From Escherichia coli O157:H7 (GTDB taxonomy: Bacteria > Pseudomonadota > Gammaproteobacteria > Enterobacterales > Enterobacteriaceae), in NCBI RefSeq assembly GCF_013167455.1, contig NZ_CP038328.1: DNA of 64,000 nucleotides; one strand, 5' to 3'. Numbering within the stretch: position 1 is the stretch's first letter; every line of letters begins with the position of its first letter. The notes beneath the pieces are model-generated. The model worked only from the letters and a program-made list of their open reading frames with translations. It was not told the origin of the DNA and did not search any database. Made by a program: the position numbers and the translations under genes. Shown here piece after piece: positions 24,640 through 49,782 of the stretch.

Positions 24640-25763
24640 TGCGCCATTTACGCAATATTTTTAATCTGGGTATCAAAGAGTTGCGCAGTCTACTCGGTGA
24701 TAAAGCGATGCTGACATTGATTGTCTTCTCGTTTACGGTGTCGGTGTATTCGTCAGCGACCGTCACGCCAGGATCGTTGAACCTGGCACCGATCGCCATT
24801 GCCGATATGGATCAATCGCAGTTATCGAACCGGATCGTTAACAGCTTCTATCGCCCGTGGTTTTTGCCACCGGAGATGATCACCGCCGATGAGATGGATG
24901 CCGGACTGGACGCCGGGCGTTATACCTTTGCGATAAATATTCCGCCTAATTTTCAGCGTGATGTCCTCGCCGGACGCCAGCCAGATATTCAGGTGAACGT
25001 CGATGCCACGCGCATGAGCCAGGCATTTACCGGCAATGGGTATATCCAGAATATTATCAACGGTGAAGTGAACAGCTTTGTCGCGCGCTACCGTGATAAC
25101 AGCGAACCGTTGGTATCGCTGGAAACCCGGATGCGCTTTAACCCGAACCTTGATCCCGCGTGGTTTGGCGGGGTGATGGCGATCATCAACAACATTACCA
25201 TGCTGGCGATTGTATTGACCGGATCGGCGCTGATCCGCGAGCGTGAACACGGCACGGTGGAACACTTACTGGTGATGCCGATAACGCCGTTTGAGATCAT
25301 GATGGCGAAGATCTGGTCGATGGGGTTGGTGGTGCTGGTGGTATCGGGATTATCACTGGTGCTGATGGTAAAAGGCGTGTTGGGCGTACCGATTGAAGGC
25401 TCGATCCCGCTGTTTATGCTGGGCGTGGCGCTTAGTCTGTTTGCCACCACGTCAATCGGCATTTTTATGGGGACAATAGCGCGTTCAATGCCGCAACTGG
25501 GGCTGCTGGTGATTCTGGTGCTGCTGCCGCTGCAAATGCTTTCCGGTGGTTCCACGCCGCGCGAAAGTATGCCGCAGATGGTGCAGGACATTATGCTGAT
25601 CATGCCGACGACACACTTTGTTAGCCTCGCGCAGGCCATTCTCTACCGTGGTGCCGGATTCGAAATCGTCTGGCCGCAGTTCCTGACGCTGATGGCAATT
25701 GGCGGCGCGTTTTTCACCATTGCGCTGCTGCGATTCAGGAAGACGATTGGGACAATGGCGTAA
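24636..25763 (+). CDS. yhhJ: ABC-2 family transporter permease
   Basis: ORF frame 24555..25763; start at ATG 24636 overlapping the rbbA stop (ATGA), giving 375 aa; polytopic membrane protein. Confidence 0.85.
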
Positions 25764-25775
25764 GGAAGGGAAACT

Positions 25776-25825
25776 TGACTTCATACTGTGATGTCATACT
25801 ATTGATGTCATAAAGTGAAGTCATA
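25776..25825 (+). promoter_or_regulatory. Putative promoter/operator of the hicAB-like operon: four spaced 10-bp repeats
   Basis: TGACTTCATA (25776), TGATGTCATA (25789), TGATGTCATA (25803), TGAAGTCATA (25816), spaced 13-14 bp. Outer copies are mutually palindromic in their core (TGACTTCA / TGAAGTCA). SD aaggac follows at 25824-25829. Confidence 0.5.
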
Positions 25826-25835
25826 AGGACATGCC

Positions 25836-26111
25836 ATGAGAACCAAGGTACAGGCTTTACGGAAGAAACAAAAAAATACATTGGATCAAATATTTAAAAC
25901 TCCTGTTCCTCAAGGGATCAAGTGGTCTGATATAGAGTCACTGGTTAAAGCATTAGGCGGAGAAATTAAGGAAGGAAGAGGTTCGCGTTGTAAGCTCATA
26001 CTAAATATGAGCGTTGCGTGTTTCCATCGGCCTCATCCGTCGCCAGATACCGATAAAGGCGCTGTAGAAAGCGTGCGTGACTGGTTACTAAGTATAGGGG
26101 TAAAACCATGA
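25836..26111 (+). CDS. HicA-like type II toxin (predicted mRNA interferase)
   Basis: 91 aa; C-terminal GRGSRCKLILNMSVACFHRPHPSPDTDKGAVESVRDWL resembles the HicA/YcfA KGSHH...HP core; 4-nt overlap with the downstream gene. Confidence 0.6.
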   Translation: MRTKVQALRKKQKNTLDQIFKTPVPQGIKWSDIESLVKALGGEIKEGRGSRCKLILNMSVACFHRPHPSPDTDKGAVESVRDWLLSIGVKP

Positions 26112-26467
26112 TCAAACTGAAGACGCCAAACTCTATGGAGATTGCCGGGCAACCTGCTGTTATCACTTACGTGCCAGAACTGAATGCATTTCGTGGCAAA
26201 TTCCTGGGCTTGTCAGGTTATTGTGATTTTGTCTCTGACAGCATTCAGGGGCTGCAAAAAGAAGGGGAACTTTCCCTGCGAGAGTATCTTGAGGATTGTA
26301 AAGCTGCGGGTATTGAGCCGTATGCGCGTACAGAAAAGATTAAGACCTTTACGTTACGCTATCCAGAATCGCTGAGTGAACGCCTTAATAATGCGGCTGC
26401 GCAGCAACAAGTCTCTGTTAATACCTATATTATTGAAACACTGAATGAGCGTTTGAATCATTTATAA
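26108..26467 (+). CDS. HicB-like antitoxin with C-terminal ribbon-helix-helix-like DNA-binding segment
   Basis: 119 aa; N-terminal HicB-like region (PAVITYVPELNAFRGKFLGLSGYCDF); C-terminal ESLSERLNNAAAQQQVSVNTYIIETLNERL typical of RHH/CopG. Confidence 0.6.
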   Translation: MIKLKTPNSMEIAGQPAVITYVPELNAFRGKFLGLSGYCDFVSDSIQGLQKEGELSLREYLEDCKAAGIEPYARTEKIKTFTLRYPESLSERLNNAAAQQQVSVNTYIIETLNERLNHL

Positions 26468-26469
26468 CT

Positions 26470-26506
26470 TATAGCGGCCCAACAATTTCTGTTGCGCCGC
26501 TATATT
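26470..26506 (+). terminator. Rho-independent terminator after hicB-like gene
   Basis: tatagcggc-ccaacaatttctgtt-gcgccgctata followed by tttttgtgg. Confidence 0.7.
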
Positions 26507-26516
26507 TTTGTGGCTC

Positions 26517-27377
26517 TTAAGATGCCTTTCTAACCAACCGATGCCCCTCATTCATCATCAGGATTTTGCTATACACATCTTCCTCGACGGCGTTTTTTGC
26601 TGATGCCATGACTCGTGCCAGATTCGCCTCGTTGTGATTATTCACATACGCTTTGCCGACGGCGGTGATAAACGCTTTGCGCAGATCGCTGGCGATATTT
26701 ACTTTAGCGACGCGATAATTAACAAAGCTGCGTAATATCTCCGGGGCGATACCGGAGCCGCCGTGAATAACCAACGGCACCGGACAGACTTCGGCAATGC
26801 GCTTCAGCAGGGGGATATCGATACGCGGTATATCGTCCAGGCCATGAACGTTGCCAATAGAAACTGCCAGCATGTCGCAACCGGTACGCTCGACAAAGGT
26901 CTTCACCTTTTCCGGTTCCGTTTTGCAATCGGCTTCGCTGACGTGATCATCTTCTTTGCCGAGAATCGCCCCCAGCTCCGCTTCAACCGGTACGCCATAG
27001 GATTTACAGAAATCGACAGCTTCCTGGGTGAAAGCGATATTCTCTTCAAAAGAGAATGCGGCACCGTCAATCATGACCGAGGTAAAGCCCGCGCGCACCG
27101 CCTGTTTAACATCCTCCTGGGTTTTCCCGTGATCCAGATGAAGACTGACCGGAACATCCATTTTATCGGCGTGACGTTTCACGATTTCATAAATGTAATC
27201 GTATCCCGAGAGTTGTGCATTGGTTGGCGCAATCTGAATGAAGTTGGGTAATCCCGAACGCTCAATAGCGTTTAAAATTGAAATTGTCGTCTCCAGATTG
27301 GTGGTATTAAATGCGCCCGCTAATACCCGTTTTTCCTGAATGCGGTCGAGCAGTATCCGTCCATTAACTAATGGCAT
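26517..27377 (-). CDS. Class II ketose-bisphosphate aldolase (GatY/KbaY/FbaA family)
   Basis: 286 aa; metal-ligand motifs LHLDHG and VIHGGSG typical of class II aldolases. Confidence 0.8.
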   Translation of the reverse strand: MPLVNGRILLDRIQEKRVLAGAFNTTNLETTISILNAIERSGLPNFIQIAPTNAQLSGYDYIYEIVKRHADKMDVPVSLHLDHGKTQEDVKQAVRAGFTSVMIDGAAFSFEENIAFTQEAVDFCKSYGVPVEAELGAILGKEDDHVSEADCKTEPEKVKTFVERTGCDMLAVSIGNVHGLDDIPRIDIPLLKRIAEVCPVPLVIHGGSGIAPEILRSFVNYRVAKVNIASDLRKAFITAVGKAYVNNHNEANLARVMASAKNAVEEDVYSKILMMNEGHRLVRKAS

Positions 27378-27408
27378 ATTGAAAACCTCATCTTTTAATA
27401 TCAGTTAA

Positions 27409-27678
27409 TTATTCAGCTTCACCGAAGCGGTCGCGAAATAAGTCGGTGAGAGTCTGTATGGCCTCGTTTTCATCATCACCGTCGCAGCGTATTTCCACCG
27501 TTTTTCCGCCTTTTATTCCGGCGCGCATAATATTCATCATGCTGGTGGCATTAATATCATTACCCTCATAGTGCAGCGTCACTTTACAGCTATATTTTTT
27601 GGCGGCTTTCGCCAGACAGGCCGCCGGACGTGCATGCAGGCCAGTACTGTTTCTGACCTCCACGGTTTTATTCAACAT
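27409..27678 (-). CDS. HPr-like PTS phosphocarrier protein
   Basis: 89 aa; active-site context GLHARPA near the N-terminus. Confidence 0.8.
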   Translation of the reverse strand: MLNKTVEVRNSTGLHARPAACLAKAAKKYSCKVTLHYEGNDINATSMMNIMRAGIKGGKTVEIRCDGDDENEAIQTLTDLFRDRFGEAE

Positions 27679-29176
27679 AGTGTTCCTCTCGATGATGTAA
27701 TGGCATCACGCCTTCTTGTTGTAATTTCAACTGATACCAGCTTTTCCATTTGTGCTGATAACGCTGTAATTGATGGTATCTCGCCCGATTCGGTAACAAA
27801 CGTTGGGCTATAGCGACTGGCGGCGGTGGAATATCCGGTGCGGCGGTTAATAATGCTCCGACAGAAACCGCCTCGTTAAATGCAATTGCTTCAACCGGAC
27901 GCTGTAAAATATCCGCCTTTAATTGCAGCCAAAGAGGATTATGGGTTGCCGGACCGATCACTTTTAACGCGCTGGTGCCAGGCACGTTAAAACAGGCGAA
28001 GCAGTTGGCAAATTCCATGGTTAATCCCAGTGATACGCTGGCAATTAACATGTCGATACTTAACGTATCGCCAAGCCCATAAAATAATCCACGGGTATGG
28101 CGATTTTTATAGGGCGAACCCGAACCGCGAAGATGTGGAATAAAGACGGGAATGTCATCGAGCAACCAATTCCCCGCCAGATAATCAGCATGTCCGCGAG
28201 TAAGTGATGCGGCGATCTCCTCATCGGTTAGCCGGAACGTGTTGCGCAGCCACTCCAGCGCGAAACCGCCCACGGGCAGCGACGCAAACAGGGTGAACTG
28301 GTTGGCAAGTGAGTAACAGCCGTTTGCCAGCTTGTCACGTTTGGCCTGTTCATCCAGCGTCGGTTGTGTATCCAGTTGCAGAATGCCTTCCGTGGTCCCC
28401 GTCGAGTTAAGGATATCGCCTGGCATCATCTGCAACGCTCGCGCACCCACCATATGGTCATGTCCGGCCAGCGTCACGCTGACCGGTTGCGAGAACCCAA
28501 GCGTCTTGCAAAGTGACTCGCTGACCCATCCGGCGTGCTCGCCTGGCTGCACCAATGGCGCAAATGCCGTACAGGGAACGTGTAACAACGCCGCCGCTTT
28601 CGCTGACCATTCGCCTTTGCGCACGTCCAGACACAGCGTGCGGCTGGCTAAGGTGATATCCGTGTGCTGTTCGCCAGTCAGCCGCCAGAGCAGCACTTCC
28701 GGCGCATGTAGCCAGCGCAGGCCGCGGCGATTACGCAGCGGGTAATGTTCCAGCAACCAGCGCATTTTGAAGGCAGAGTAATTGCTGTGTAGTGGTAGAC
28801 CGCAGATGTCATAAAGTGCCGCACTGTCTGCCTCGCTAAGCGTTGCCAGATACTCTTCACCGCGACGGTCATACCATGCCAGCATTGGCGTCAGGATCTC
28901 GCCATGCTCGTCAAGGAACACGCCTGATTCGCCAAAACTGGCAATGCTGATCCGTCTGACTGGCAGCGGCGAAGCGGCGTTCAGTTGCGCTATCGCCTGG
29001 CGGACCTCCTGCCAGAGGGCGTCGATATCGAAATCGACATCGCCCTGTGGGGAGATCTGCTTTGCCGTCACGAATTTATGCGCGCCCAACGTCGTTGCGT
29101 CCAGGCAGGAAAAGCAGGTGACTTTGCAATTGGTGGTGCCAATATCGATAACGATAGCTGCGCTGTTATCAGGCAT
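27668..29176 (-). CDS. FGGY-family carbohydrate kinase
   Basis: 502 aa; N-terminal AIVIDIGTTNCKV actin-like ATPase phosphate-1 motif; overall FGGY architecture. Confidence 0.7.
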   Translation of the reverse strand: MPDNSAAIVIDIGTTNCKVTCFSCLDATTLGAHKFVTAKQISPQGDVDFDIDALWQEVRQAIAQLNAASPLPVRRISIASFGESGVFLDEHGEILTPMLAWYDRRGEEYLATLSEADSAALYDICGLPLHSNYSAFKMRWLLEHYPLRNRRGLRWLHAPEVLLWRLTGEQHTDITLASRTLCLDVRKGEWSAKAAALLHVPCTAFAPLVQPGEHAGWVSESLCKTLGFSQPVSVTLAGHDHMVGARALQMMPGDILNSTGTTEGILQLDTQPTLDEQAKRDKLANGCYSLANQFTLFASLPVGGFALEWLRNTFRLTDEEIAASLTRGHADYLAGNWLLDDIPVFIPHLRGSGSPYKNRHTRGLFYGLGDTLSIDMLIASVSLGLTMEFANCFACFNVPGTSALKVIGPATHNPLWLQLKADILQRPVEAIAFNEAVSVGALLTAAPDIPPPPVAIAQRLLPNRARYHQLQRYQHKWKSWYQLKLQQEGVMPLHHREEHYVE

Positions 29177-30527
29177 AAACCGTGCTCCGCGTCATTCGGA
29201 AAATGCCATACAGTACCAGGGCGATAACCGGCACCAGACCAATGGCGATGAGATTGCCGTTGAAGATTTCCAGCAGCCAGAAGCGGAACGGGTTACCGCC
29301 ATCAAGAAAACTGGAAACCTGGCCGCTGGAGCCTTCGGCAAATTTGAAGTTAACGTCTTTCGCCATTCCGGTAATAAACGGCGCGATTTTGGTAGCAATC
29401 CATAGGTCGGCAATAATCACCGGGATCGCCGCCAGAACGGTGCGGAAAATATTGCCACGGCTGGCTAAAGCAATCATCGACGCCATTACCGCCAGGTTGG
29501 CAAGGTCGCCAAGCGGCAGGACTTCATTACCCGGAAGGACAAACGCGATAAAGACCGAGATTGGCGTTAGCAGCAGGGCGGTGGAGATAATCGCCGGATT
29601 ACCTACGGCAACGGCGATATCCAGGCCGATATAGAGATCGTCACGGTCAGGGTATTTGGCATTGAGATACTTTTTAATAGCTTCAGACAGCGGTAATAAA
29701 CCTTCCATCAGGATGCGTACCATGCGTGGCAGGATGAACATCACACCGCCAATGCTGATGCCAAGCAGCAATACTTTTTTGAAATCGTATCCGGCAATTA
29801 CGCCGAGCAGAATGCCCAGAATAGTGCCAACCATCATCGGTTCGCCGAAGATGCCAAACTTTTTCTGTACGGTTTCCGGGTCGATATGAATACGATTGAG
29901 GCCAGGGATATGGTCGATGATTTTGTCGACCAGCAGACCGACCGGGAAGAACACCACCGAAGAGAGCGTCGGCAATGAGATCCCTTCCAGTCCAAAGTAT
30001 TTTTGTACCAGTGGCGCAGACCAGTCGGCGAGTTTAAGTACTACCACCGCAGCAATCGCCGCCGCCAGCAAACCAAAGAACAGGCTGCCGGTGCTGTAAT
30101 AAACCAACGTACCAGCAAGGGCAAAATGCCAGTAGTTCCACATATCTACGTCAACGGTACGGGTTTTATTTAACGCCAGCATCGCCACGTTAATCAGAAT
30201 GGTCAGGGGAATAACAAACGGGGCAATTGGCGAACCCCATGTAATAGCGGAAAGCGGCGGCCAGCCTAAATCTACCACCGGTAAATTAATTCCGGTGCGT
30301 TCAACCATCGCCTGGGCCGCTGGCCCGACATTGCTGGTCAGAATATCGAAAATGGCATAAATACCGACAAAACCAATGCCGACTGTTAATGACGAACGTA
30401 AGGCTTTAGCGGGTTTTACTTTAAAACAGAGAGCAAGAATAAATAACACCAACGGCAACATTACCGTCGGGCCAAATCCCAATATATATTGCACAATATT
30501 ATAGAGGGTATGCGCGATATCGTTCAT
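29169..30527 (-). CDS. PTS EIIC permease, galactitol (GatC/SgcC) family
   Basis: ORF frame 29169..30557; start placed at internal Met 30527 (MNDIAHTLYNIVQYILGFGP...) preceded by AAGAGG; polytopic membrane protein. Confidence 0.8.
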   Translation of the reverse strand: MNDIAHTLYNIVQYILGFGPTVMLPLVLFILALCFKVKPAKALRSSLTVGIGFVGIYAIFDILTSNVGPAAQAMVERTGINLPVVDLGWPPLSAITWGSPIAPFVIPLTILINVAMLALNKTRTVDVDMWNYWHFALAGTLVYYSTGSLFFGLLAAAIAAVVVLKLADWSAPLVQKYFGLEGISLPTLSSVVFFPVGLLVDKIIDHIPGLNRIHIDPETVQKKFGIFGEPMMVGTILGILLGVIAGYDFKKVLLLGISIGGVMFILPRMVRILMEGLLPLSEAIKKYLNAKYPDRDDLYIGLDIAVAVGNPAIISTALLLTPISVFIAFVLPGNEVLPLGDLANLAVMASMIALASRGNIFRTVLAAIPVIIADLWIATKIAPFITGMAKDVNFKFAEGSSGQVSSFLDGGNPFRFWLLEIFNGNLIAIGLVPVIALVLYGIFRMTRSTVYA

Positions 30528-30603
30528 AATAAACCTCTTTTTCAGGCGAGAGCGCACCTCGCGTTAGCGCCTGATGGAGTGGGTTGAAATTAATTATTAT
30601 TAA

Positions 30604-30885
30604 TTACTTTTTAAGGATAGAAACAATTTGCGCCAGTACTTTTTCTTCGCCAATACCGGTAATAATCGGCAAGCCGTTCACCACCGGGACGTCGAGTTCA
30701 TAAGGCACTTTAGTTGTTGAAACTACCAGTGCTACGCCGTCAGTATTTCCAGGTAAAGAGGCAACGTTGGTTTGGGAATAATTGACGTTAAGACCTTGCT
30801 CTTTGCAATATTCCATGACTTTTTCTGTTACCGCCGTGGATGTGGCAATACCCGTGGCGCAGACAAATAAAATGGTTTGACTCAT
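30604..30885 (-). CDS. PTS EIIB component, galactitol-type
   Basis: 93 aa; MSQTILFVCATGIATST with the phospho-acceptor Cys. Confidence 0.8.
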   Translation of the reverse strand: MSQTILFVCATGIATSTAVTEKVMEYCKEQGLNVNYSQTNVASLPGNTDGVALVVSTTKVPYELDVPVVNGLPIITGIGEEKVLAQIVSILKK

Positions 30886-31355
30886 ATTTCACCTCGTTCT
30901 TTCATTTTGTTTAAGATTACTGTGTGTATTTCTGTTGTTTCCATCGCAAGCAGGGCTTGCATAAAGGGCGTATCCTGAATCATTTCCATAATCCAGCCCA
31001 GGGCATTTAATTGTTTATTGCTTTCGCTTAAGGCGAGCAAAAAAATCACCCTGACAGGTACGGGGTCAGGATCGCCGCCCATATCGGCAAACTCTACCGG
31101 TTCCGGCAGGATGCCGACGGCAATTGCATTGTGCCTGACATGTTTATGGTCCGTGTGCGGAATAGCGACGCACGGTGGTTCGGTAGGCAGCCCCGTTGGG
31201 TACGTCGCCTCACGTTTCAGTACGTGATCGGCAAAATCAGGGACGACCAGCTCGGCGGCAACCAACGGTTGCGCTAACTGGCGGATGATCTGTTCAACGC
31301 TTAACCCTGCCGGAAGTCGTTGAATATAATTTTCCTGAAAATGTATGCCTTGCAT
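30882..31355 (-). CDS. PTS EIIA component (fructose/mannitol-type EIIA-2 fold)
   Basis: 157 aa; conserved His-containing CVAIPHTDHKHV region; 4-nt overlap with EIIB. Confidence 0.75.
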   Translation of the reverse strand: MQGIHFQENYIQRLPAGLSVEQIIRQLAQPLVAAELVVPDFADHVLKREATYPTGLPTEPPCVAIPHTDHKHVRHNAIAVGILPEPVEFADMGGDPDPVPVRVIFLLALSESNKQLNALGWIMEMIQDTPFMQALLAMETTEIHTVILNKMKERGEI

Positions 31356-31379
31356 TTTATTCCTCTTAAAAAAGTGTAC

Positions 31380-32135
31380 TTAACTCACTTCCCGCCGTTG
31401 CAGTACGGTGCCAAGATAATATTTATTTCCTTTTAACCAGACGTTGCCAAACTCAATGGGTAATCCTCGGGAGAAAAAGACTAACTGCTCCAGATGCAAA
31501 ACGGGTGCGTCTTCACTGATATCTAAAAAATGACCACGTTCATTACCAATTAATCGCGCGGCATAGCGACTTTCCGAGTAACGAATTTTTCTTTGCGACA
31601 AACTTTCTATTGTTGGAAATAAATTGTGTTGATTAAAATCGATTTCAGCAATACCGGGGCATAGCTCAATATTGATACGGTTCTCTATCAGCATCGCTTT
31701 TTCATCACCAATTGAGCGTAAGCGTTCAAGGTAAAGAATATCCTGACCGGGCGTTATTCTTAATTTCTCTGCCACATAACGATTAGCCGATTCAATCCGT
31801 GACGTAATAACTTCAGTGGTAAAATGTATTTTCTGGCTTTCCAGCGATTCCGCGAATGACAATAATCCTTCACCTAACGGATATGCCACGTTCTCTTTTT
31901 TGACAAATGTTCCCTTACCCTGGACCTGTATTAACACGCCTTCTTTTACCAGTTGGGCGACCGCTTTTTTAACGGTTCCCCGACTCACGTCCAGCATATC
32001 CATAATCTGGTATTCCGAAGGAATGCGATCGTCTTCCACCAGATCTCCGGTATAAATACTTTCTCTTATCCACTCCACCACTTGTTGATAGAGCGGTATT
32101 TGTGACGACTTACTTAATGATTTCATGGCGCGCAC
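31380..32135 (-). CDS. GntR-family transcriptional regulator (HTH plus UTRA effector domain)
   Basis: 251 aa; N-terminal winged HTH (IPSEYQIMDMLDVSRGTVKKAV), C-terminal UTRA-like domain; first gene of the PTS operon. Confidence 0.8.
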   Translation of the reverse strand: MRAMKSLSKSSQIPLYQQVVEWIRESIYTGDLVEDDRIPSEYQIMDMLDVSRGTVKKAVAQLVKEGVLIQVQGKGTFVKKENVAYPLGEGLLSFAESLESQKIHFTTEVITSRIESANRYVAEKLRITPGQDILYLERLRSIGDEKAMLIENRINIELCPGIAEIDFNQHNLFPTIESLSQRKIRYSESRYAARLIGNERGHFLDISEDAPVLHLEQLVFFSRGLPIEFGNVWLKGNKYYLGTVLQRREVS

Positions 32136-32324
32136 CTGAACATTTACAGTTGTCTATGGACAATCATGGACAACTTCAAGCGTATAGTAGGTGAACGGGA
32201 GAAAAAGAGGATCGAAGCGTCTCACATTTTGAGGGACCAAATCGTGATCAAAAAAATGTGACGTGAGTCGATATTTGTCAGAAGTTTACTGCGCCGTAAG
32301 GAAATAACGGCGCGTTGGTAGGTG

Positions 32325-35128
<2,804 letters not shown>

Positions 35129-38346: not shown

Positions 38347-39576
38347 TCAGGGCCAACGTTTAATGATGATGGATGTATTAATGCCGCCAAAGGCAAAGTT
38401 GTTACTCTGCAAAAACTCACAATCAACCTTGCGGGCTTCATGCATGATGTAATCCAGCGCGCCACAATTCGGGTCTGGTTTATTCAGGTTTAGCGTAGGC
38501 GCAAACCAACCTTCGCGCATCATTTGCAGACTCATCCAGGCTTCGAGCGCGCCACAGGCACCAAGCGTATGACCAAAATAACTTTTCAGCGAGGAGAGCG
38601 GCACATTATCACCGTAAATGGTTGCTGTCGCCAGACTTTCTGCCATATCACCGCGATCGGTCGCCGTACCATGCGCTGAAATATAGCCGATATCTTGTGC
38701 GCTTAACCCGGCGATTTTCAGCGATTGCTCCATACAATACTGCATGGTTTCGCGCTGCGGCTGGGTAATATGTGCCGCGTCGCAGTTAGTCGCAAAGCCG
38801 ACGATTTCACCGTAAATGGTCGCGCCGCGCGCTTTGGCGTGCTCCAGTTCTTCGAGAATGAGCGTACCTGCGCCTTCACCAATCACCAGCCCGTCGCGGT
38901 TTTCATCGAACGGTGAAGGTGTGGTTTTCGGCGCATCATTGTGCTGGCTGGTGGCGAAAAGCGTATCAAATACCGCTGCTTCTGAAGGACATAACTCTTC
39001 GGCACCACCAGCAACCATCACCGTTTGATAACCGTGGCGAATGGCTTCCCACGCATAACCGATTGCCTGGCTGCCGGAAGTACAGGCGCTGGAGGTTGGG
39101 ATCACCCGCCCGCGCAGGCCGAAAAAGAGGCCAGTATTAACGGCGGTGGTGTGCGGCATCATCTGCACATAGGTGGTGCCAGTGATGTTATTGGTGTGCT
39201 TTTCCGTCAGCATGGTGGCGAACTCGCTTACCGGGCCGGTACTGCCGGTCGATGAACCGTACGCAATGCCCGTTTCGCCGCTGGTTAATATCGGATCGCC
39301 AATCAACCCTGCCTGCTCTAACGCCAGCTCGCTGGCACGGGTCGACATTTGCGACACGCGGCCCATCGCACGGATACGCTTGCGGGTGTAGTGCTCCGGT
39401 AGCGTGAAATCATCAACAGGCGCGCCAAGCAGGGTGTGCAGCCCATCGTAGACCTGCCACTCCGGCATTTTGCGCACCGCATTTTCATATGCCAGTAAGC
39501 GTGCAGAAACGTCCTGCCAGTTTTCACCAAAGGCAGTCACGCCGCCCATTCCTGTAATCACTACGCGACGTGTCAT
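38347..39576 (-). CDS. Beta-ketoacyl-ACP synthase, FabB/FabF-like (APE cluster)
   Basis: 409 aa; active-site SSACTSG and His-containing AHGTATD and GHTLGACG motifs. Confidence 0.85.
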   Translation of the reverse strand: MTRRVVITGMGGVTAFGENWQDVSARLLAYENAVRKMPEWQVYDGLHTLLGAPVDDFTLPEHYTRKRIRAMGRVSQMSTRASELALEQAGLIGDPILTSGETGIAYGSSTGSTGPVSEFATMLTEKHTNNITGTTYVQMMPHTTAVNTGLFFGLRGRVIPTSSACTSGSQAIGYAWEAIRHGYQTVMVAGGAEELCPSEAAVFDTLFATSQHNDAPKTTPSPFDENRDGLVIGEGAGTLILEELEHAKARGATIYGEIVGFATNCDAAHITQPQRETMQYCMEQSLKIAGLSAQDIGYISAHGTATDRGDMAESLATATIYGDNVPLSSLKSYFGHTLGACGALEAWMSLQMMREGWFAPTLNLNKPDPNCGALDYIMHEARKVDCEFLQSNNFAFGGINTSIIIKRWP

Positions 39577-40304
39577 AACATCCCTCCGTTGATGGAAATA
39601 ACCTGGCGGGTGACGTAACCCGCAATATCAGACATTAAATAGCTGGCAAGCCCGGCAACTTCTTCCGCCTGGCCCATGCGTTTCATGGGGATCATCGACA
39701 TTGCCTCTTTCAGGGCGCTCTCTTCCATTTCGATCATCCCGGTATCAATAAGCCCCGGCGCGATGCAGTTGACGGTGATTTTGCGCTTCGCGAGTTCGAT
39801 AGCCAGCGCTTTTGTTGCGCCGATAATTCCGGCTTTGGCAGCGCTGTAATTCACCTGGCCGCGATTGCCCATTACGCCGGAAACCGAGGATAGCGTGATG
39901 ATGCGCCCACCCTGGCGTGCGCCGATCATCGGCATAATGCACGGCTGAATGACGTTGTAGAAACTGTCGAGGTTGGTGTGGATCACCGCATCCCAGTCGT
40001 CATCGCTTAAAGCCGGAAAAGCGGCATCGCGGGCGATCCCGGCGTTACTGACCACGCCGTACCAGGCACCGTGTTGCGCGATTTCGTGCTCCAGCACTTC
40101 CCGACACTGTTCGCGGTTTGCGACGTCGAAACTGAGCAAACGCCCGTTACCCCCATTGGCGACAATGGCATTCAGCGTTTCCTGAGCGCCTGTGGCGTCA
40201 CGGTGATAGTGAACGCCAATGTTAAAGCCGTCTGCCGCCAGTTGGCAGGCGATGGCGCGACCAATGCCTTTGCTGGCACCAGTAACCAGAACTGAACGAC
40301 TCAT
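39573..40304 (-). CDS. 3-oxoacyl-ACP reductase, SDR family (APE cluster)
   Basis: 243 aa; NAD(P) motif TGASKGIGRA, catalytic YSAAK. Confidence 0.85.
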   Translation of the reverse strand: MSRSVLVTGASKGIGRAIACQLAADGFNIGVHYHRDATGAQETLNAIVANGGNGRLLSFDVANREQCREVLEHEIAQHGAWYGVVSNAGIARDAAFPALSDDDWDAVIHTNLDSFYNVIQPCIMPMIGARQGGRIITLSSVSGVMGNRGQVNYSAAKAGIIGATKALAIELAKRKITVNCIAPGLIDTGMIEMEESALKEAMSMIPMKRMGQAEEVAGLASYLMSDIAGYVTRQVISINGGML

Positions 40305-40768
40305 CAGGACGCTCCTTGTTGAAACAGGGTGGTAAGTTCTTCCGCGGTCGGCTGGAAGGTGTTAATGCGGCCCGTCGCCTCGCCGTCGTTGATGCTGCAC
40401 TCAAAACTGCCGAAGCGATCGTCTTGCATCAGCAGTTTGACGGTAATGGTCAGTGTCTGGCCTGCGGGCAGAATGCCAGTGGTGCAAAGCAATTCACGCG
40501 CGCCCAGTATCATCCCTAACTCAATACTGTTTTTGCCCTGCTGGTGGCGATGCCAGCCAGACCAGACGCCGACGGTTTGCGCCATCAGTTCAAGGGTAAA
40601 CCAGCCGGGGAGATTGCCGTCCGGGTCGAGAAACGGTGCCAGTACGCCACTGGGCGAAACCGTCACGCGGCACACCGCGCTGTCATCGCTGACGCTCACC
40701 ACGTCTTCCAGCAGTAACATGGGCGCGTCGTGGGGCAGATAAGCGCCGGGGGATAAATAGTGGCTCAC
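40304..40768 (-). CDS. Hot-dog fold 3-hydroxyacyl-ACP dehydratase (APE cluster)
   Basis: 154 aa; FabA/FabZ-like hot-dog fold. Confidence 0.7.
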   Translation of the reverse strand: MSHYLSPGAYLPHDAPMLLLEDVVSVSDDSAVCRVTVSPSGVLAPFLDPDGNLPGWFTLELMAQTVGVWSGWHRHQQGKNSIELGMILGARELLCTTGILPAGQTLTITVKLLMQDDRFGSFECSINDGEATGRINTFQPTAEELTTLFQQGAS

Positions 40769-41943
40769 GAAACCCTCCCGAGCAGAATGCTGGCGTTATT
40801 GCCGCCAAAGGCGAAGGAATTGGACAGGATCACCGGACGTGCCAGCGGCTGCGGTTTTTCGATAATGCCACACGGTGGCAGCGTGGGATCGCGCGGCGAC
40901 AGGCTGAAGTCCTGAGCGGGCAGCGGTAAATCACGCTGTAAAATCAACATACTAATTGCCGCCTCGGTAATGCCCGCTGTGCCCAGCGTGTGTCCGGTCA
41001 AATGTTTGGTGGAGCTGCACGGTACGCGTTCGCCAAACAGGGCGTTAACCACCATTGATTCAATCTGATCGTTGAGTTGTGTGGCGGTGCCGTGCAGGTT
41101 GATATAGCCGACGTCATCTGGCGTAAGCTGCGCATCGGTCAGCGCCTGATTAATAGCGCGGATCGCTCCTTCGCCCTGCGGATGCGGGGCTGAAATATGG
41201 TAAGCGTCGCTCGATTCACCAACGCCCAGCAACGCGATGGGCTGCGGTTCCCGGGTCAGCAGCATTAGCCCCGCCCCTTCACCAATGGTGATACCTGCGC
41301 GGTCACGACCAAACGGCTGACATAAGGTTGGCGACAGCGATTCGAGGCTGTGAAAACCGTTAATCGGCATCCGGCTCAGGGTGTCTGCGCCACCCACAAT
41401 GGCGGCATCGACCAGCCCCGCTTCGATAAGCCTGCGCCCGCTGATTATCGCTCTGGCGCTGGAAGAGCAGGCGGTTGAAAGGGTATAGGCCGGGCCGTCG
41501 AGCGCCAGCCAGTGGCTGAGAAAACGCGACGGATCGCCGAGTTCCTGTTGCGCGTAGTGCCATGTGGTGCTCGGCTGCCCGTGGGTGCGCAGGTTAACGT
41601 GCGTGTCGCCTTCATGCAGGCCGGAGGTGCTGGTACCAAGCACAATCGCAATGCGCTCGCGGCCATATTTCGCAATGGCGTCATCAACCTGCGGCTGGAT
41701 CTGCGCCAGCGCCGCCAGCAGGATCTGATTGTTGCGCGAGCGGTGCGCAGCGAATTTTTCCGGGATAAGCGGAAGCTCGCCATCCACGCCAGCCAGGACC
41801 GCCTGCGGATGCCCCTGCAACCAGCCTGCGCGCGGGCGCATGCCGGGAGCAACACCGCGAGTCAGGTTGGTTGCGATTTCGTCAAGGTTATTTCCCAGGG
41901 CGTTGATCATGCCGACGGCGGAAATATAAATCATATCAGTCAC
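40765..41943 (-). CDS. Beta-ketoacyl-ACP synthase (APE cluster)
   Basis: 392 aa; thiolase fold with TACSSS active-site Cys region and HGTAT / GHTLGTAG His motifs. Confidence 0.8.
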   Translation of the reverse strand: MTDMIYISAVGMINALGNNLDEIATNLTRGVAPGMRPRAGWLQGHPQAVLAGVDGELPLIPEKFAAHRSRNNQILLAALAQIQPQVDDAIAKYGRERIAIVLGTSTSGLHEGDTHVNLRTHGQPSTTWHYAQQELGDPSRFLSHWLALDGPAYTLSTACSSSARAIISGRRLIEAGLVDAAIVGGADTLSRMPINGFHSLESLSPTLCQPFGRDRAGITIGEGAGLMLLTREPQPIALLGVGESSDAYHISAPHPQGEGAIRAINQALTDAQLTPDDVGYINLHGTATQLNDQIESMVVNALFGERVPCSSTKHLTGHTLGTAGITEAAISMLILQRDLPLPAQDFSLSPRDPTLPPCGIIEKPQPLARPVILSNSFAFGGNNASILLGRVS

Positions 41944-42520
41944 CTAAGTATTGAATGGTGATGTGGTATTTAAAGACATGCTGCTCAATGCTGATTGGCA
42001 CGCGTTTGCCCTTGCGATTCAGATAGGTGATTTCCGTGACCAGTTTGCCGCTGGCGTTACGCAGCTCGCGTTTGTCACCGTTGTCGCGAAGTGTCCATCC
42101 TGCGGGAAGTTGCGGTTGCCAGGCGCTAATCGGCCAGTGGCTGAGCATCACGTCAGCCAGTACCTGACTTGCGGGCGGTAACTGTGGGACGACGATGGAT
42201 TGCTCGGCGCGTAGCCCTTGCGCATCGTAGGTCACCAGAAACAGGCGAATGCCGACCGACGACAGCCCGGCAAGGGTGATTTTCTGATCGTCGGCGTTAA
42301 GCATCACTAACAGCGACTGGGTTTTGCCGTTGAAGCTGCCGGTCAACAGTTGCTGCGAATTGACTGCGGGTGAAATCCCTGGTGCCGGCAGCGTGATGCG
42401 CGTGCCAGGTTGCAGCCACGCCTGCGGGCGGCCTTCCTGTTCTGGTTGCGAGTGGCTACAGCCGGTGAGGATAAGCGTAGCGGTCAGGGCGAACGCTCGC
42501 CAGAATGTGGATTTGATCAT
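41936..42520 (-). CDS. Lipoprotein, DUF3261-like (APE cluster)
   Basis: 194 aa; signal peptide with lipobox LTGC. Confidence 0.65.
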   Translation of the reverse strand: MIKSTFWRAFALTATLILTGCSHSQPEQEGRPQAWLQPGTRITLPAPGISPAVNSQQLLTGSFNGKTQSLLVMLNADDQKITLAGLSSVGIRLFLVTYDAQGLRAEQSIVVPQLPPASQVLADVMLSHWPISAWQPQLPAGWTLRDNGDKRELRNASGKLVTEITYLNRKGKRVPISIEQHVFKYHITIQYLGD

Positions 42521-44835
42521 TTTTTTGTTCTCTTTTTATCGGGCATAGCCAGCGGCGAAAGCAGGAAGGCGGTGAAAATACCGCTCACCAGCACAATGCC
42601 AAAACTGCTGATGGCCTGGGTGGCGCTGAATACCAGCATACCCAGCGTCAGCAAGGTGGTGAGCATTGCCAGCGCGATCGCCAGTAGCGAAGTTAACGGT
42701 GTACCGCGCGGATTACTGAAAAACAGCGTGTAGTTGATACCGATGCCAAGCACCAGCACCAGCGCCAGCAGCGAAAAGAGATTCACCGCCTGCCCGCTCA
42801 TCGCCAGCACCGCCAGACCACAGCCCAGCGAAAGCACCGAAGGCACCAGGCTGATAAGCCCTTTGCGCCAGCCGAGACGGGCCACTGCGCCGCAGGCAAT
42901 CACTGCCAGCGCCACCAGCAACAAGCCGGTTAAGACGTAGCGGTAAAGTGCGAACAATTCATCAAAGGTGCTTTTGCGATCAACCCAGGCAATGCCGCAA
43001 GGGTAATATGTGGCGATTTCCTGCATCAACGCGCTACTTTTAACCCCTTCAACCGGCACCAGTACGCCGCTTTCGCCGTTTTCCAGCGTCAGCCACAGCA
43101 GACGCCAGCCTTCACTGGCGGGGCTTGCCAGCCATTCATCAACGTTCACTGGCATGGCGTTGAGATCCGGGTTCACTGCCGTCAGCCCGGCATTTTGCAG
43201 CGCTTTTGTTACTGTCGGGGCCGCCGTTTTCAGCAGTTGTAAATCTTCCTCCTGCCGCGCAAGGGAGTTCAGCGGAATGGTGCGGTAGTTGCTGATAAGC
43301 CCCTCTTTTTTCGCATACTCAAGTGAGGCGGTATATTTCTCCAGTCGCCGCAATGTTTGCTGTGGCGAATCGCCGTAAACCACAAACCATTTTTGATCGA
43401 CGCTCTGCCCGGTCAGGGCGGTAATGGCTTTTTCCTGCGCCAGAATATGCTGCGGTAGCGCCTGTAACTGCGAGATATCGTCATCGACGCGTAGCATTGA
43501 CATCCCCGCCAGCGAAAACAGCGCCAGCGCGACGGGCAGACCCAGCGACAGTTTTTTATTACGCCGCCACGCTGCCAGCCAGCGTAGCATCAGCGCCATC
43601 GCCGGAACCGGACGCACCGGCAGGCCACGGCACAGCCACGGATGCCAGAACAGGACGGTCAGACAGGAGGCGCTCAACCCGACGGCGGCAAAAATCGCCA
43701 TCTGGCGAATGCCGGGGAAGGGGGCGAGCATCATAATCAGATACGCCGCCACGGTGGTGAGCAGCGCCAGTAGCAAGGCATTGCGTACTTTCGCCAGGCT
43801 TTGCCACGGCGAAACGTCGTTGCCGTGAACCATCCGCTCGGTGAGATAATAGAGCGTGTAGTCAGCGGAAATGCCGATAACGCTCATGCTCATCACCAGC
43901 GTCATCAGGTGTAATTCACCGAAAATCAATAAAGTGGCGACCGTTCCCGCCAGCGCGCCGATGCCGATGGAAATCACGCAAAGCAGCAACGGGCGTAAAG
44001 AGCGGAACACCGCCACAATCAGCAATATCACCCCCAGCAGCGTAGCCACGCCCAGGGTGGAGATATCCTGCTTCGCCTGTTGGCTGGCGTAATCGCTGTA
44101 AAACACCGTGCCGCGCGAGAGCAACTGTGCCTGCGGGTAACGCGTTTTCAGATCCTTTTCCAGCGTATTCAGGGTCGTGATCAGCTGGTGGGTTTGCTGC
44201 ATATCAAACGACGATCCCGCCAGTTCGCCGTGCAGCAGATACCAGTAGTTGCCCTGGGGATCCTGCGTCACCAGCCAACCGTCCATCAGCCGCAAACGCT
44301 GGCCGTTTTTCGCCATTGCCAGCTGCGAGCCGCGCATTAACATCAGCGGATCGTTTTGCAGCTCCTTGCCGCTTACGCCGGAGAATGCGGAATAAAGCTG
44401 GGAGAGGATCCACTGTGCCTGCGCTTCGCCGCCGTTTTGCAGGCGGGCGCGGGTGTTGGGGTCAATCAGGCCGTTGCGATGCTGCCAGAAAAACGCTCCC
44501 CACGCCTGCTGGCTGGCGGCATCCATTGGCCCTTTAACGTCGCCGAGCGCAGCGGATTTTTGCAGCAGCGTCAGCCACTCCTGAGCGACCAAAGGATTAG
44601 CCTCTTTACCGGGGCTGACCAGCCACACCAGTTGGCGGTCAAGACGCTGCATAAAGCCGTCATTCAGCGCCGGAGGAATATCGCCCATCGTCTGTTTGGG
44701 TAACATAGCCAGCACGCTACTGTTCAGCCGTGATTGCGGCAGCAGGATCAGCAACGCCACCGCCATGACCAGGCAGACTAGCCCCCATAACAGCGCGGGG
44801 CGTTTACTGGGCGGCAAAACGTTGGCGTTCGTCAT
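42517..44835 (-). CDS. MMPL/RND-superfamily membrane exporter (APE cluster)
   Basis: 772 aa; two TM bundles separated by large periplasmic domains. Confidence 0.75.
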   Translation of the reverse strand: MTNANVLPPSKRPALLWGLVCLVMAVALLILLPQSRLNSSVLAMLPKQTMGDIPPALNDGFMQRLDRQLVWLVSPGKEANPLVAQEWLTLLQKSAALGDVKGPMDAASQQAWGAFFWQHRNGLIDPNTRARLQNGGEAQAQWILSQLYSAFSGVSGKELQNDPLMLMRGSQLAMAKNGQRLRLMDGWLVTQDPQGNYWYLLHGELAGSSFDMQQTHQLITTLNTLEKDLKTRYPQAQLLSRGTVFYSDYASQQAKQDISTLGVATLLGVILLIVAVFRSLRPLLLCVISIGIGALAGTVATLLIFGELHLMTLVMSMSVIGISADYTLYYLTERMVHGNDVSPWQSLAKVRNALLLALLTTVAAYLIMMLAPFPGIRQMAIFAAVGLSASCLTVLFWHPWLCRGLPVRPVPAMALMLRWLAAWRRNKKLSLGLPVALALFSLAGMSMLRVDDDISQLQALPQHILAQEKAITALTGQSVDQKWFVVYGDSPQQTLRRLEKYTASLEYAKKEGLISNYRTIPLNSLARQEEDLQLLKTAAPTVTKALQNAGLTAVNPDLNAMPVNVDEWLASPASEGWRLLWLTLENGESGVLVPVEGVKSSALMQEIATYYPCGIAWVDRKSTFDELFALYRYVLTGLLLVALAVIACGAVARLGWRKGLISLVPSVLSLGCGLAVLAMSGQAVNLFSLLALVLVLGIGINYTLFFSNPRGTPLTSLLAIALAMLTTLLTLGMLVFSATQAISSFGIVLVSGIFTAFLLSPLAMPDKKRTKK

Positions 44836-45409
44836 CGGTCAGTTGCGCTGGCGTCAGTTGATGTTGGGTAAGAGCAATATCGGTGCGATCGCCCTGTTTA
44901 TCATTAAGTTGAATGCTCTCCAGATAGGTTTTCCCGGCGAGATCGATGGTGTTGAAAATTTTATCCAGCGGCGTGGTGGTCGGCGTCAGGCGCAGCGTCC
45001 AGCGGCCTTCGCCTTTGTCAGCAAATTCGACGCGGAAGTTTTGTTCCAGCACTTTGCGATCGGCCTGGAACAACGCGCGCAGCAGGTGGTTAAACTGGAA
45101 CATCTGCGGGTTGTTTTCTGCCGTGATGATTTGCGGCGGCTGACCGTTGATCACCTGCACCATGCGTTTATCGTCCAGTAATAGTTGCATGGGGAACGGT
45201 GAGGTTTGATCCCACAACAGCCCCTGGTCGCGGGCGATCAACATCTGGCCCTGAGATCGCAGCGGCTGCGGCAGATCTTTAATCGTCCGGGTTTGATCGA
45301 AATGGGCGCGGATCACCGGTTGTTCGGTAAAGCGTTGCTGAAGATCGTCCAGGGTCAGGGCGCTCACAAACGGGCTAATCAGCAGCGCCAGCAGCGGTAA
45401 AAATTTCAT
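44804..45409 (-). CDS. LolA-like periplasmic lipoprotein-carrier protein (APE cluster)
   Basis: 201 aa; signal peptide MKFLPLLALLISPFVSA; LolA-like. Confidence 0.7.
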   Translation of the reverse strand: MKFLPLLALLISPFVSALTLDDLQQRFTEQPVIRAHFDQTRTIKDLPQPLRSQGQMLIARDQGLLWDQTSPFPMQLLLDDKRMVQVINGQPPQIITAENNPQMFQFNHLLRALFQADRKVLEQNFRVEFADKGEGRWTLRLTPTTTPLDKIFNTIDLAGKTYLESIQLNDKQGDRTDIALTQHQLTPAQLTDDERQRFAAQ

Positions 45410-45828: not shown

Positions 45829-45831
45829 CCT

Positions 45832-47508: not shown

Positions 47509-47852
47509 AGGCGGATCTTCCCGCTACTGGCGGTGTGGCGGGCGTCACCGTCGTGACGCTGATAGCTAAAGCTCAGAATCTGGCGTTCTTCCTGCCAGTT
47601 AAGCGCGAGCGTGACGCGGTTTTCCGGCAGCAACGGAGACTGGAATTTTATGTTCTGAATGGAGTGAAAACGCCAGCCAGGCGCGAGCAGATTGAGCGCG
47701 TAGCTCATCGCCCAGTCGATTTGCGCAACTCCTGGGAGTAATGGTTGCACGGCAAAATGACCGCGAAACCAGAACAGATCCGCCCTGAGATGCAGAACAA
47801 TTTCAAGGTGATTCGTTTGTGCCTGATGGCGCTCGATTTCATGGGGCTTCAT
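47499..47852 (-). CDS. Hot-dog dehydratase, FabA-like (APE cluster)
   Basis: ORF frame 47499..47882; internal Met at 47852 preferred (14-nt overlap with the upstream gene), 47882 possible. Confidence 0.6.
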   Translation of the reverse strand: MKPHEIERHQAQTNHLEIVLHLRADLFWFRGHFAVQPLLPGVAQIDWAMSYALNLLAPGWRFHSIQNIKFQSPLLPENRVTLALNWQEERQILSFSYQRHDGDARHTASSGKIRLCR

Positions 47853-49778: not shown

Positions 49779-49782
49779 CAGA

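Follow-up and report, generated by a model that had tools for sequence, protein, structure and literature searches.

The seven-gene operon at positions 26517-32135 (minus strand) of a 64,000-nucleotide stretch of the Escherichia coli O157:H7 chromosome (contig NZ_CP038328.1; hereafter the window) encodes a GntR/UTRA regulator, the EIIA, EIIB and Gat-type EIIC components of a phosphoenolpyruvate-dependent phosphotransferase system (PTS), an FGGY-family kinase, an HPr paralogue and a class II aldolase. The favoured reading, to which a probability of roughly 0.55 was attached, is that these proteins would constitute a ketose PTS, a C1-phosphorylating FGGY kinase and an aldolase releasing dihydroxyacetone phosphate. 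According to this model, phosphoryl groups would pass from Enzyme I via the operon HPr to EIIA and then EIIB, and the Gat-type EIIC would import the ketose while phosphorylating its terminal (omega) hydroxyl, as do GatABC, with galactitol, and the XylB-type kinases. The FGGY kinase would then use ATP at C1, beside the carbonyl, to yield a ketose 1,omega-bisphosphate, which the Zn-dependent aldolase would split into dihydroxyacetone phosphate and an aldose phosphate, either glyceraldehyde 3-phosphate (from a hexulose) or erythrose 4-phosphate (from a heptulose). With either of these products no further dedicated enzyme would be needed. The operon would represent a horizontally acquired, self-contained module for the catabolism of a ketose missing from the standard phenotyping panels. 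A second phosphorylation followed by aldol cleavage had already been proposed in a sequence-only reading of the window, and the proposal gained support from two variants of the gene cassette, one mimicking gat by means of dehydrogenases and the other, which lacks the PTS, carrying a second, XylB-like kinase. As the operon corresponds to Z4874-80, STM3779-85 and c4276-80, already noted in papers as a PTS with specificity unnamed, it is not a first sighting; the island is in the literature, its function is not.

Operon structure and family assignments

The sequence-only reading had described seven tightly packed or overlapping genes sharing one direction, and all seven open reading frames (ORFs) were indeed found, in agreement with the RefSeq annotation of an identical O157:H7 chromosome (a 6001-bp query was 100% identical to the chromosome of strain PV15-279). 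RefSeq placed the start later, at an ATG, in two cases (32126 versus the GTG at 32135 for the GntR gene, and 30527 versus 30557 for EIIC) and named the products GntR-family regulator, PTS IIA, IIB and 'galactitol' IIC, FGGY-family kinase, HPr-family protein and class II aldolase. Gaps of 24 nt (GntR-IIA), 76 nt (IIB-IIC) and 31 nt (HPr-aldolase) separate the genes that do not overlap, while the IIA/IIB, IIC/FGGY and FGGY/HPr pairs overlap by 4, 8 and 11 nt, respectively. The operon is real and intact.

Family membership was assigned by comparing NCBIfam profile scores with their curated cut-offs. All family assignments were upheld and none of the substrate-specific models was reached, the scores that exceeded a cut-off including those for the generic HPr model TIGR01003 (103 versus 47.9 bits) and for the aldolase equivalog NF005943/PRK07998, which names no substrate (557 versus 364 bits). 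The Gat-specific models all remained below cut-off (GatA, 57 versus 139; GatB, 58 versus 95; EIIC-GAT, 476 versus 542 bits), the EIIC match to TIGR00827 nevertheless having an E-value of 8e-143 and extending over 406 of the 407 profile positions. EIIA and EIIB resembled GatA and GatB best, and an EIIC-GAT domain was combined with a separate PTS_EIIA_2 EIIA and a PTS_IIB EIIB, as is characteristic of the generic Gat-family PTS (Transporter Classification 4.A.5); PF03611, PF00359 and PF02302 were detected on the orthologues. In alignments, the active-site His of EIIA and Cys of EIIB coincided with those of GatA and GatB and were invariant across all cassettes. The regulator combines a GntR winged helix with a UTRA domain, as seen from full-length matches to HutC-, PhnF- and TreR-type models and from PF00392 and PF07702 on its orthologues. 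Its best NCBIfam match, LSA1692, was followed as a lead and discarded, the Lactobacillus sakei gene lying near an EIIC annotated as cellobiose-specific and being irrelevant here.

A recurrent core cassette and its variants

All seven genes were found together in Escherichia, Citrobacter, Enterobacter, Pantoea, Izhakiella, Cedecea, Phytobacter, Rahnella, Trabulsiella and Salmonella, and their co-occurrence in at least 10 genera and in three gene orders lies far beyond chance. A core of regulator-aldolase-IIA-IIB-IIC-kinase, without HPr, was present in Enterococcus, Listeria immobilis, Clostridium, Lacticaseibacillus paracasei, Pectinatus and Mitsuokella, and the IIC/kinase overlap was usually retained; in Centipeda the kinase was assigned by cluster membership alone. 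As judged by gene content, the core (regulator, aldolase, EIIABC and FGGY kinase) recurs in Enterobacterales, Bacilli, Negativicutes and Orbales. The E. coli proteins share 72-78% (EIIC), 50-70% (aldolase), 39-48% (EIIA) and 36-39% (kinase) identity with their Firmicute and Negativicute counterparts, and the same ranking, with EIIC high and the kinase and EIIA low, was seen within every clade.

In all clades compared, the evolutionary rates of EIIA, the kinase and HPr exceed those of EIIB, EIIC, the aldolase and the regulator several-fold (between E. coli and Listeria, for instance, EIIC is 78% and the kinase 37% identical), and it is these three rapidly changing proteins for which contacts with one another or with HPr are expected. 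A mosaic or replaced kinase gene, which its higher G+C content and far lower cross-genus identity might have indicated, was considered and rejected. The G+C content at third codon positions (GC3) of the kinase gene is like that of EIIC, the tree shapes agree and synonymous divergence (dS) is saturated for all genes, pointing to rate heterogeneity and not to gene replacement.

Three departures from the core are informative. In the first, IIA-IIB-IIC-kinase is followed by a Zn-dehydrogenase, as found in Pantoea rwandensis, Gibbsiella, Rahnella/Erwinia and Gilliamella. The Pantoea-type loci (L025, L105, L107 and L123) have a second dehydrogenase, which in Pantoea rwandensis is GatD-like, with its best match to galactitol-1-phosphate 5-dehydrogenase (238 bits). 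The aldolase of the dehydrogenase variants is 82-87% identical to that of E. coli (59% in Gilliamella). These variants represent the route in a form for polyols, comparable to gat, and would take the matching alditol.

The second departure lacks the PTS and was represented by one high-GC (71%) genome and ten related metagenome contigs. These actinobacterial loci contain RbtT/DalT-type transporters of the major facilitator superfamily (MFS), a Zn-dehydrogenase, an aldolase of the same family (340 bits to NF005943) and the same type of kinase, which is adjoined by a XylB-like kinase (305 bits to TIGR01312) with the motifs GDNAA, GQxH and SLGTSG, as in XylB. Contexts were typed for 80 metagenome loci, some of which were too short to type. 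Gat EIIC together with only this kinase was seen in 58 of the 80, the Lacticaseibacillus paracasei double type in five, and all 11 loci without a PTS contained the aldolase, this kinase and the XylB-like kinase. The presence of a XylB-like kinase where the PTS is missing suggests that one phosphate comes from the PTS and the other from this kinase.

Further observations were made on the variant loci. In most PTS-less loci (L106, L110, L117, L120 and L125) the XylB-like gene is followed by a third FGGY gene, the product of which is 21-25% identical to the kinase and also has GHDH. In several dehydrogenase variants a phosphatase lies beside the aldolase or kinase gene, which in the Gilliamella variant (L041 11005-11643) is a histidine phosphatase and in the Pantoea-type loci, comprising Pantoea rwandensis, Gibbsiella and related metagenome contigs (L025 12687-13475), a nucleotidase of the SurE type. 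The third departure was seen in Lacticaseibacillus paracasei (L044 11867-20333), where a second cassette directly follows the Gat-type one. Its products are an aldolase (454 bits to NF005943), a PRD/Mga regulator, an EIIABCD of the mannose type, a Zn-dehydrogenase, a kinase resembling XylB (357 bits) and a DUF4428 protein; this would be another uncharacterised pathway combining a PTS, an FGGY kinase and a class II aldolase, its kinase being of the complementary type.

Active sites of the kinase and the aldolase

The two-domain fold of the kinase was evident from PF00370 and PF02782 on a 97%-identical cluster representative, and its AlphaFold2 model (predicted local distance difference test score of 88.5) showed a generic FGGY fold, with a template modelling score of 0.82 to glycerol kinases (GlpK). 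The protein scored below the cut-off of every characterised FGGY family (XylB, GlpK, FucK, RhaB, GntK and LsrK), the best being XylB at 146 versus 380 bits, and sequence and fold searches of solved structures returned only generic FGGY relatives of at most 23% identity, which did not discriminate the substrate. The motifs DIGTTN, GHDH, NSTGTTEG and VIGPA..NPLWLQ were recognised in the kinase, with the phosphate loop, catalytic Asp and GT motif intact. Across 10 diverse members DIGTTN, GHDH and NSTGT were invariant, and the adenosine motif GGG was exchanged for IGPA in most members and for IGAA in the dehydrogenase variants. Residues K39, H130, H239, H241 and H348 are His/Lys positions specific to the family. 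Regiochemistry is known for seven E. coli FGGY kinases that were compared, and of these the ketose 1-kinases FucK and RhaB alone have a His directly before the catalytic Asp, this residue being absent from XylB, AraB, LyxK, LsrK and GlpK. The operon kinase and all of its relatives carry GHDH, together with a G-E-(S/A)-G loop resembling the G-V-D loop of FucK/RhaB. As the His-Asp signature is common to FucK and RhaB, the kinase is proposed to add the C1 phosphate, and its active-site signatures as a whole suggest C1 phosphorylation.

The aldolase is a member of PF01116 class II (TIGR00167, 221 versus a cut-off of 216 bits), and an alignment showed that the three Zn-binding His residues, the Asp beside the first of them and a Glu are conserved in the motifs LHLDHG, GNVHG, IHGGSG and EAELG. 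Scores remained below the cut-offs for GatY (240 versus 383), KbaY (183 versus 542) and fructose-bisphosphate aldolase (238 versus 343), and the operon has no GatZ-like partner. The best sequence match among solved structures was AgaY, which did not discriminate the substrate. The 'DPR' arginine of GatY/KbaY, which is equivalent to Arg331 of E. coli FbaA and binds the distal phosphate, is matched by a basic residue in most members of the family. This residue is Arg in the Enterobacterales, in the cassettes of both dehydrogenase variants (Pantoea and Gibbsiella) and in the actinobacterial copy, and Lys in Firmicute cassettes. Together with the two-kinase PTS-less loci, it provides an indirect basis on which cleavage of a 1,omega-bisphosphate is predicted.

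Bisphosphate versus monophosphate route

The same evidence was also considered in the light of a monophosphate route, in which the kinase would be an ordinary 1-kinase acting on the free ketose, the aldolase would cleave a ketose 1-monophosphate and the PTS would be a parallel or regulatory route of entry, or would import without net phosphorylation of the hydroxyl concerned. FucK and RhaB, with which the HD motif is shared, both act on free ketoses, the PF01116 aldolase YdjI uses a monophosphate according to its annotation (PDB 6ofu), the basic residue for the distal phosphate is not universal, and the frequent occurrence of three FGGY genes and two MFS transporters in PTS-less loci is compatible with separate branches. 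This route was nevertheless considered unlikely, given that the EIIA/EIIB/EIIC phosphorelay is complete and strongly conserved with its His and Cys intact, that nearly all cassettes show translational coupling of EIIC with the kinase, and that the XylB-like kinase appears exactly where the PTS is missing.

Several points, however, weigh against the bisphosphate route itself. The 11 PTS-less loci form a single high-GC clade and therefore amount to approximately one independent observation, and the third FGGY gene in most of them means that two kinases could serve separate branches. The 'HD' marker is based on two versus five reference enzymes, and no FGGY kinase is known to use a sugar phosphate as its substrate. 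At the 'DPR' position of the aldolase, the basic residue is missing (Asn, Gly or Glu) in the Lacticaseibacillus and Mitsuokella copies. No growth attributable to the operon was seen on the reported panel ketoses and polyols in either the Nissle 1917 tag-cluster mutant or the type strain, the induction in gut contents described below was measured against glucose medium and may be mere catabolite derepression, and the Salmonella island is reported to be silenced by H-NS (PMC3604774). Finally, a literature search by locus tags, protein accessions and keywords found no biochemical characterisation of any of the seven proteins, only the labels 'unknown specificity', 'unknown sugars' or 'galactitol'.

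Candidate substrates

As the E. coli-type cassette contains neither an oxidoreductase nor an isomerase, the substrate should itself be a ketose. That it cannot be named from sequence, as the earlier reading held, was agreed. A pentulose, which would yield glycolaldehyde phosphate, seems less likely, the pentitol-type MFS transporters and the phosphatases of the variants keeping this option alive.

Some of the names given to the operon in the literature point to galactitol, a transcriptome study labelling the EDL933 genes Z4875-77 'galactitol transporter' (PMC6199705) and the CFT073 counterpart c4276-c4280 being given as 'PTS system, galactitol specific' (PMC2831201). With GatA, GatB, GatC and GatY as the best named matches and an architecture equal to that of the PTS-dependent D-tagatose route, a second galactitol or D-tagatose system had to be considered. 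It was judged highly improbable and is largely refuted: all Gat-specific models fall below cut-off, and the operon lacks GatD, GatZ and a PfkB kinase. The type strain DSM 30083, in which the operon is intact, was negative for dulcitol (PM-01), evidence that is taken from the literature and assumes expression of the operon. In Nissle 1917, which also bears the operon, deletion of the ABC-type tag cluster abolished both growth on D-tagatose and its consumption (PMC9720028).

The Phenotype MicroArrays of the type strain were negative not only for dulcitol but also for D-psicose, adonitol, D-/L-arabitol, xylitol, erythritol, sedoheptulosan, palatinose and turanose (PMC4334874). D-psicose had been a candidate, as Nissle 1917 grows on it and K-12 does not (PMC7924626), and was rejected as a straightforward answer on the negative result for the type strain, although the operon may not be expressed in that strain. 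The published phenotypes thus argue against galactitol, D-tagatose, D-psicose, pentitols, xylitol and erythritol. Operon expression permitting, they speak against all ketoses and polyols that the PM1/PM2 publications name, other than those accounted for by different loci, and point to a sugar outside these plates.

A broader proposal, put forward tentatively and at rather less than even odds, is that of a widespread three-step pathway in which the kinase would found an FGGY subfamily phosphorylating C1 of an already phosphorylated ketose and would be partnered by the PRK07998-type aldolase. The sugar could be, for example, D-sorbose, an L-ketohexose or a heptulose (sedoheptulose or mannoheptulose), and the pathway would extend over Enterobacterales, Bacilli, Negativicutes, Orbales and, with MFS uptake, Actinobacteria. 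If this were true, O157:H7, B2 E. coli and Salmonella subspecies I would possess a private gut- or plant-derived carbon source. Confirmation of the kinase substrate would establish a new FGGY reaction type (sugar-phosphate 1-kinase) and a function for the PRK07998 aldolase family.

The HPr paralogue

The operon HPr belongs to the HPr family, as shown by its TIGR01003 score, an invariant GLHARPA motif and the finding of PF00381. It misses the cut-off of the PtsH equivalog NF008104 (50.6 versus 153 bits) and matches PRK13780 (78 bits) and PRK13782 (68 bits) better. His15 and Arg17 are present in all orthologues, Ser46 only in those of the Escherichia, Citrobacter and Enterobacter cancerogenus type. 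The gene was found only where the cassette resides in Enterobacterales and in none of the Firmicute, Negativicute or Gilliamella cassettes, and the existence of core cassettes without HPr elsewhere indicates that it is an enterobacterial addition. The simplest reading is that it would act as an adaptor linking a cassette shared with Firmicutes to the enterobacterial Enzyme I. The homologue search for HPr reached close relatives only and says nothing on its origin. Many truncated versions of HPr (about 57 aa) are also contained in the database clusters.

The sequence-only reading had called a private HPr uncommon. The operon does have an HPr of its own; its occurrence is, however, confined to Enterobacterales and outside the conserved core, and E. 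coli already possesses other dedicated HPr-like modules, FPr and NPr, so that 'uncommon' holds only in a relative sense.

It was also possible that HPr serves mainly as a regulator of the FGGY kinase, through binding or His-phosphorylation, and not as a phosphocarrier to EIIA. Precedents are HPr with LsrK in E. coli and HPr with GlpK in Firmicutes, 11 nt are common to the kinase and HPr genes where the order is that of E. coli, and HPr belongs with EIIA and the kinase to the fast-evolving trio. In most genera, however, the HPr gene follows the aldolase gene and not the kinase gene, Firmicute cassettes work without HPr, conservation as in carriers is seen for His15 and Arg17 but not for Ser46, and the kinase loop that is phosphorylated in Firmicute GlpK has no conserved His. 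A mainly regulatory role was therefore regarded as improbable.

Promoter, operator and expression

Eleven orthologous enterobacterial upstream regions were aligned to find conserved blocks in the 189-bp region upstream of the regulator gene, which opens with the nikR terminator hairpin (-13.1 kcal/mol). The TGTGA half of a CRP-like site and its distance to the predicted -10 element were conserved in all 11. The putative operator lies between the -10 element and the start codon (Table 1), a position consistent with autorepression, and its TTGTACAT/ATGTACA repeat motif also occurs upstream of the Firmicute and variant cassettes, the regulators of which are 55-69% identical. From these blocks we infer CRP activation and autorepression, in which TTGTCCATAGACAA-type operators, immediately following a CRP-dependent promoter, would be the sites where the GntR/UTRA protein represses the operon that encodes it. 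A consensus promoter scan flagged neither the CRP-like site nor the operon promoter, the latter being seen by conservation only, and a search of Rfam returned no RNA element in 25500-33000. At the other end of the operon, the stem-loop shared with hicB has a T-run on the plus (hicB) side only.

Of the EDL933 genes Z4874-Z4880, Z4875, Z4876, Z4877 and Z4879 were upregulated in the contents of the bovine small intestine, rectum and rumen as compared to M9-glucose medium, with log2 fold changes of 2.1-3.8 (approximately 4- to 14-fold) (PMC6199705).

Table 1. Positions of the operon genes and of putative regulatory elements within the window.
Feature	Position	Strand	Remarks
GntR/HutC-family regulator with UTRA effector domain (Z4874)	31380-32126	-	ORF extends to GTG 32135; PF00392 and PF07702 on Salmonella orthologue; dN/dS 0.03
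PTS EIIA, PTS_EIIA_2 type (Z4875)	30882-31355	-	Active-site His aligns with GatA; induced in bovine digestive contents
PTS EIIB, Gat/lactose type (Z4876)	30604-30885	-	Active-site Cys conserved; induced in bovine digestive contents
PTS EIIC, Gat family (Z4877)	29169-30527	-	ORF extends to 30557; TIGR00827 476 bits
FGGY-family kinase 'K1' (Z4878), proposed ketose-omega-phosphate 1-kinase	27668-29176	-	Start overlaps EIIC stop by 8 nt
Operon-specific HPr paralogue (Z4879)	27409-27678	-	His15/Arg17/Ser46; 11-nt overlap with kinase gene; induced in bovine digestive contents
Class II (Zn) ketose-phosphate aldolase (Z4880)	26517-27377	-	PRK07998/NF005943 family; NF005943 557 bits versus cut-off 364
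CRP-like half-conserved site, TGTGA-N6-TCGAT (putative)	32211-32226	-	Centred 41.5 bp upstream of predicted transcription start (class II position)
Predicted -10 hexamer, TACTAT (TAnnAT conserved)	32184-32189	-	Position and sequence kept across orthologous upstream regions
Putative GntR/HutC operator, AGTTGTCCATGATTGTCCATAGACAACT	32148-32175	-	Contains near-palindrome TTGTCCA.TAGACAA; almost invariant in Enterobacterales
Stem-loop shared by convergent aldolase and hicB genes, candidate two-way terminator	26470-26504		-22.9 and -21.2 kcal/mol; z about -5.6 on both strands

Distribution, acquisition and maintenance

The operon (at least 80% coverage) was present in 1635 of 5426 complete E. coli genomes (about 30%), in every case on the chromosome, and occupies the nikR-yhhJ intergenic site, which is variable in E. 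coli. The GC3 of the seven genes (0.40-0.58) is lower than that of the flanking nikR and yhhJ (0.65), and the ratio of nonsynonymous to synonymous substitution rates (dN/dS) within Escherichia is 0.02-0.13 for each of them, denoting purifying selection. On these compositional and evolutionary measures, the operon is an acquired but selectively maintained module. All seven genes are intact in the type strain (DSM 30083/ATCC 11775) and in Nissle 1917, the proteins of the latter being 96.6-99.3% identical one by one. The aldolase is 286 aa in O157:H7 and 283 aa in Nissle 1917 and the type strain, in which the C-terminal end differs.

In Salmonella, STM3785-STM3779 (gene order R-A-B-C-K-Ald-HPr) have been described as an AT-rich, H-NS-repressed island acquired by the ancestor of subspecies I, with a 'complete PTS' of 'unknown specificity' (PMC3604774), and the operon was still listed under 'unknown sugars' in 2024 (PMC11000858). 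This reported H-NS repression, the patchy presence in about 30% of E. coli, and the lack of operon-attributable growth on panel ketoses and polyols in published PM1/PM2 and deletion data would fit a cryptic, decaying island with no current function. Such an explanation is hardly tenable, however, in view of the strong purifying selection on all seven genes, their intactness in O157:H7, Nissle 1917 and the type strain, the induction of transcripts in gut contents and the conservation of the cassette across phyla.

The yhhJ-nikR site (about 25764-32324) is a hot spot of integration, for which E. coli has at least five allelic states: empty, with 8 bp between the genes; hicAB alone; hicAB with the operon, as in the window; the operon alone, as in Nissle 1917, the E. 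coli type strain, Escherichia whittamii and, at the same site, Citrobacter amalonaticus; and rhsB-yhhH-ISEc1 in K-12. The HicA (91 aa)/HicB (119 aa) toxin-antitoxin pair is located at 25836-26467 on the plus strand, between yhhJ and the operon and convergent with the aldolase gene. The presence of hicAB and that of the operon are independent, some strains having only hicAB, and Nissle 1917 and the type strain only the operon.

Comparison with characterised systems

Parts of the predicted route are found in several characterised systems. In fruBKA, an HPr-like carrier (the FPr domain of FruB) is likewise dedicated to one sugar PTS and a kinase then makes a 1,6-bisphosphate; there, however, FPr forms one protein with an EIIA domain, the kinase FruK is of the PfkB type, EIIBC belongs to the Fru family and the operon has no aldolase gene of its own. 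FucK/FucA and RhaB/RhaD also pair a His-Asp FGGY kinase with a metal-dependent aldolase releasing dihydroxyacetone phosphate, but use free 6-deoxy-ketoses imported by permeases, have aldolases of the FucA/RhaD fold and not PF01116, and involve no PTS. The ydj cluster (YdjH and YdjI) provides a PF01116 aldolase for an unusual phosphorylated ketose, and YdjI is 36% identical to the operon aldolase; it differs in its monophosphorylated octuluronate substrate, in MFS uptake without a PTS and in its PfkB-type kinase YdjH.

With gatYZABCD(R) the operon shares Gat-family EIIA, EIIB and EIIC, and would share terminal-hydroxyl phosphorylation and a ketose 1,6-bisphosphate cleaved by a PF01116 aldolase, the dehydrogenase variants copying the GatD step. 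Unlike gat, it has neither GatD nor GatZ, employs a dedicated FGGY kinase instead of the housekeeping PfkA and a GntR/UTRA regulator instead of one of DeoR type, and has its own HPr. TagK, a PfkB-type, 1-phosphofructokinase-like enzyme, acts on tagatose 1-phosphate, whereas the operon kinase is of the FGGY family and would probably add the C1 phosphate. The PTS-dependent D-tagatose pathway to which TagK belongs (tagKTH with gatYZ in Klebsiella and Salmonella, and a related Bacillus licheniformis cluster) otherwise has the same logic of a ketose PTS, an ATP-dependent kinase forming a bisphosphate and a class II aldolase (PMC9720028). The same study describes TagK and PfkA in the bisphosphate-forming role, which bears out the claim of the sequence-only reading that PfkB/PfkA kinases normally fill it.

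What distinguishes the operon is an FGGY kinase predicted to act on a sugar phosphate, an aldolase family without an assigned substrate, a GntR/UTRA regulator and an HPr of its own. The route is biochemically novel provided that the prediction for the kinase is correct; it is ecologically relevant to enteric pathogens and conceptually unsurprising. Few complete systems for sugar uptake in major enteric pathogens are still without a named substrate. The operon is one of them, and its carriers include enterohaemorrhagic O157:H7, extraintestinal pathogenic/B2 strains, the probiotic Nissle 1917 and Salmonella enterica subspecies I, in which it was gained at the origin of this subspecies of warm-blooded hosts. 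With the sugar named, models of colonisation would gain a nutrient niche and the widespread "galactitol" annotation would be corrected. The comparative data shrink the candidates to a short list of rare ketoses, and the operator and regulator could be used for a biosensor.

A second variable region in the window

Elsewhere in the window, a 15-kb lipid/polyketide-like cluster was noted in O157:H7 between acpT and yhhT (about 38347-53363, minus strand). It contains ketoacyl synthases, a chain-length factor, acyl carrier proteins, an ApeP-family dehydratase and FabG2, along with an MMPL transporter, a LolA-like protein and a glycosyltransferase, and resembles an aryl-polyene cluster; it directly adjoins the gene for the phosphopantetheinyl transferase AcpT. 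In the other strains inspected, namely the K-12-like strain AML002_par, Nissle 1917, the type strain and isolate AF22, acpT lies directly beside yhhT.

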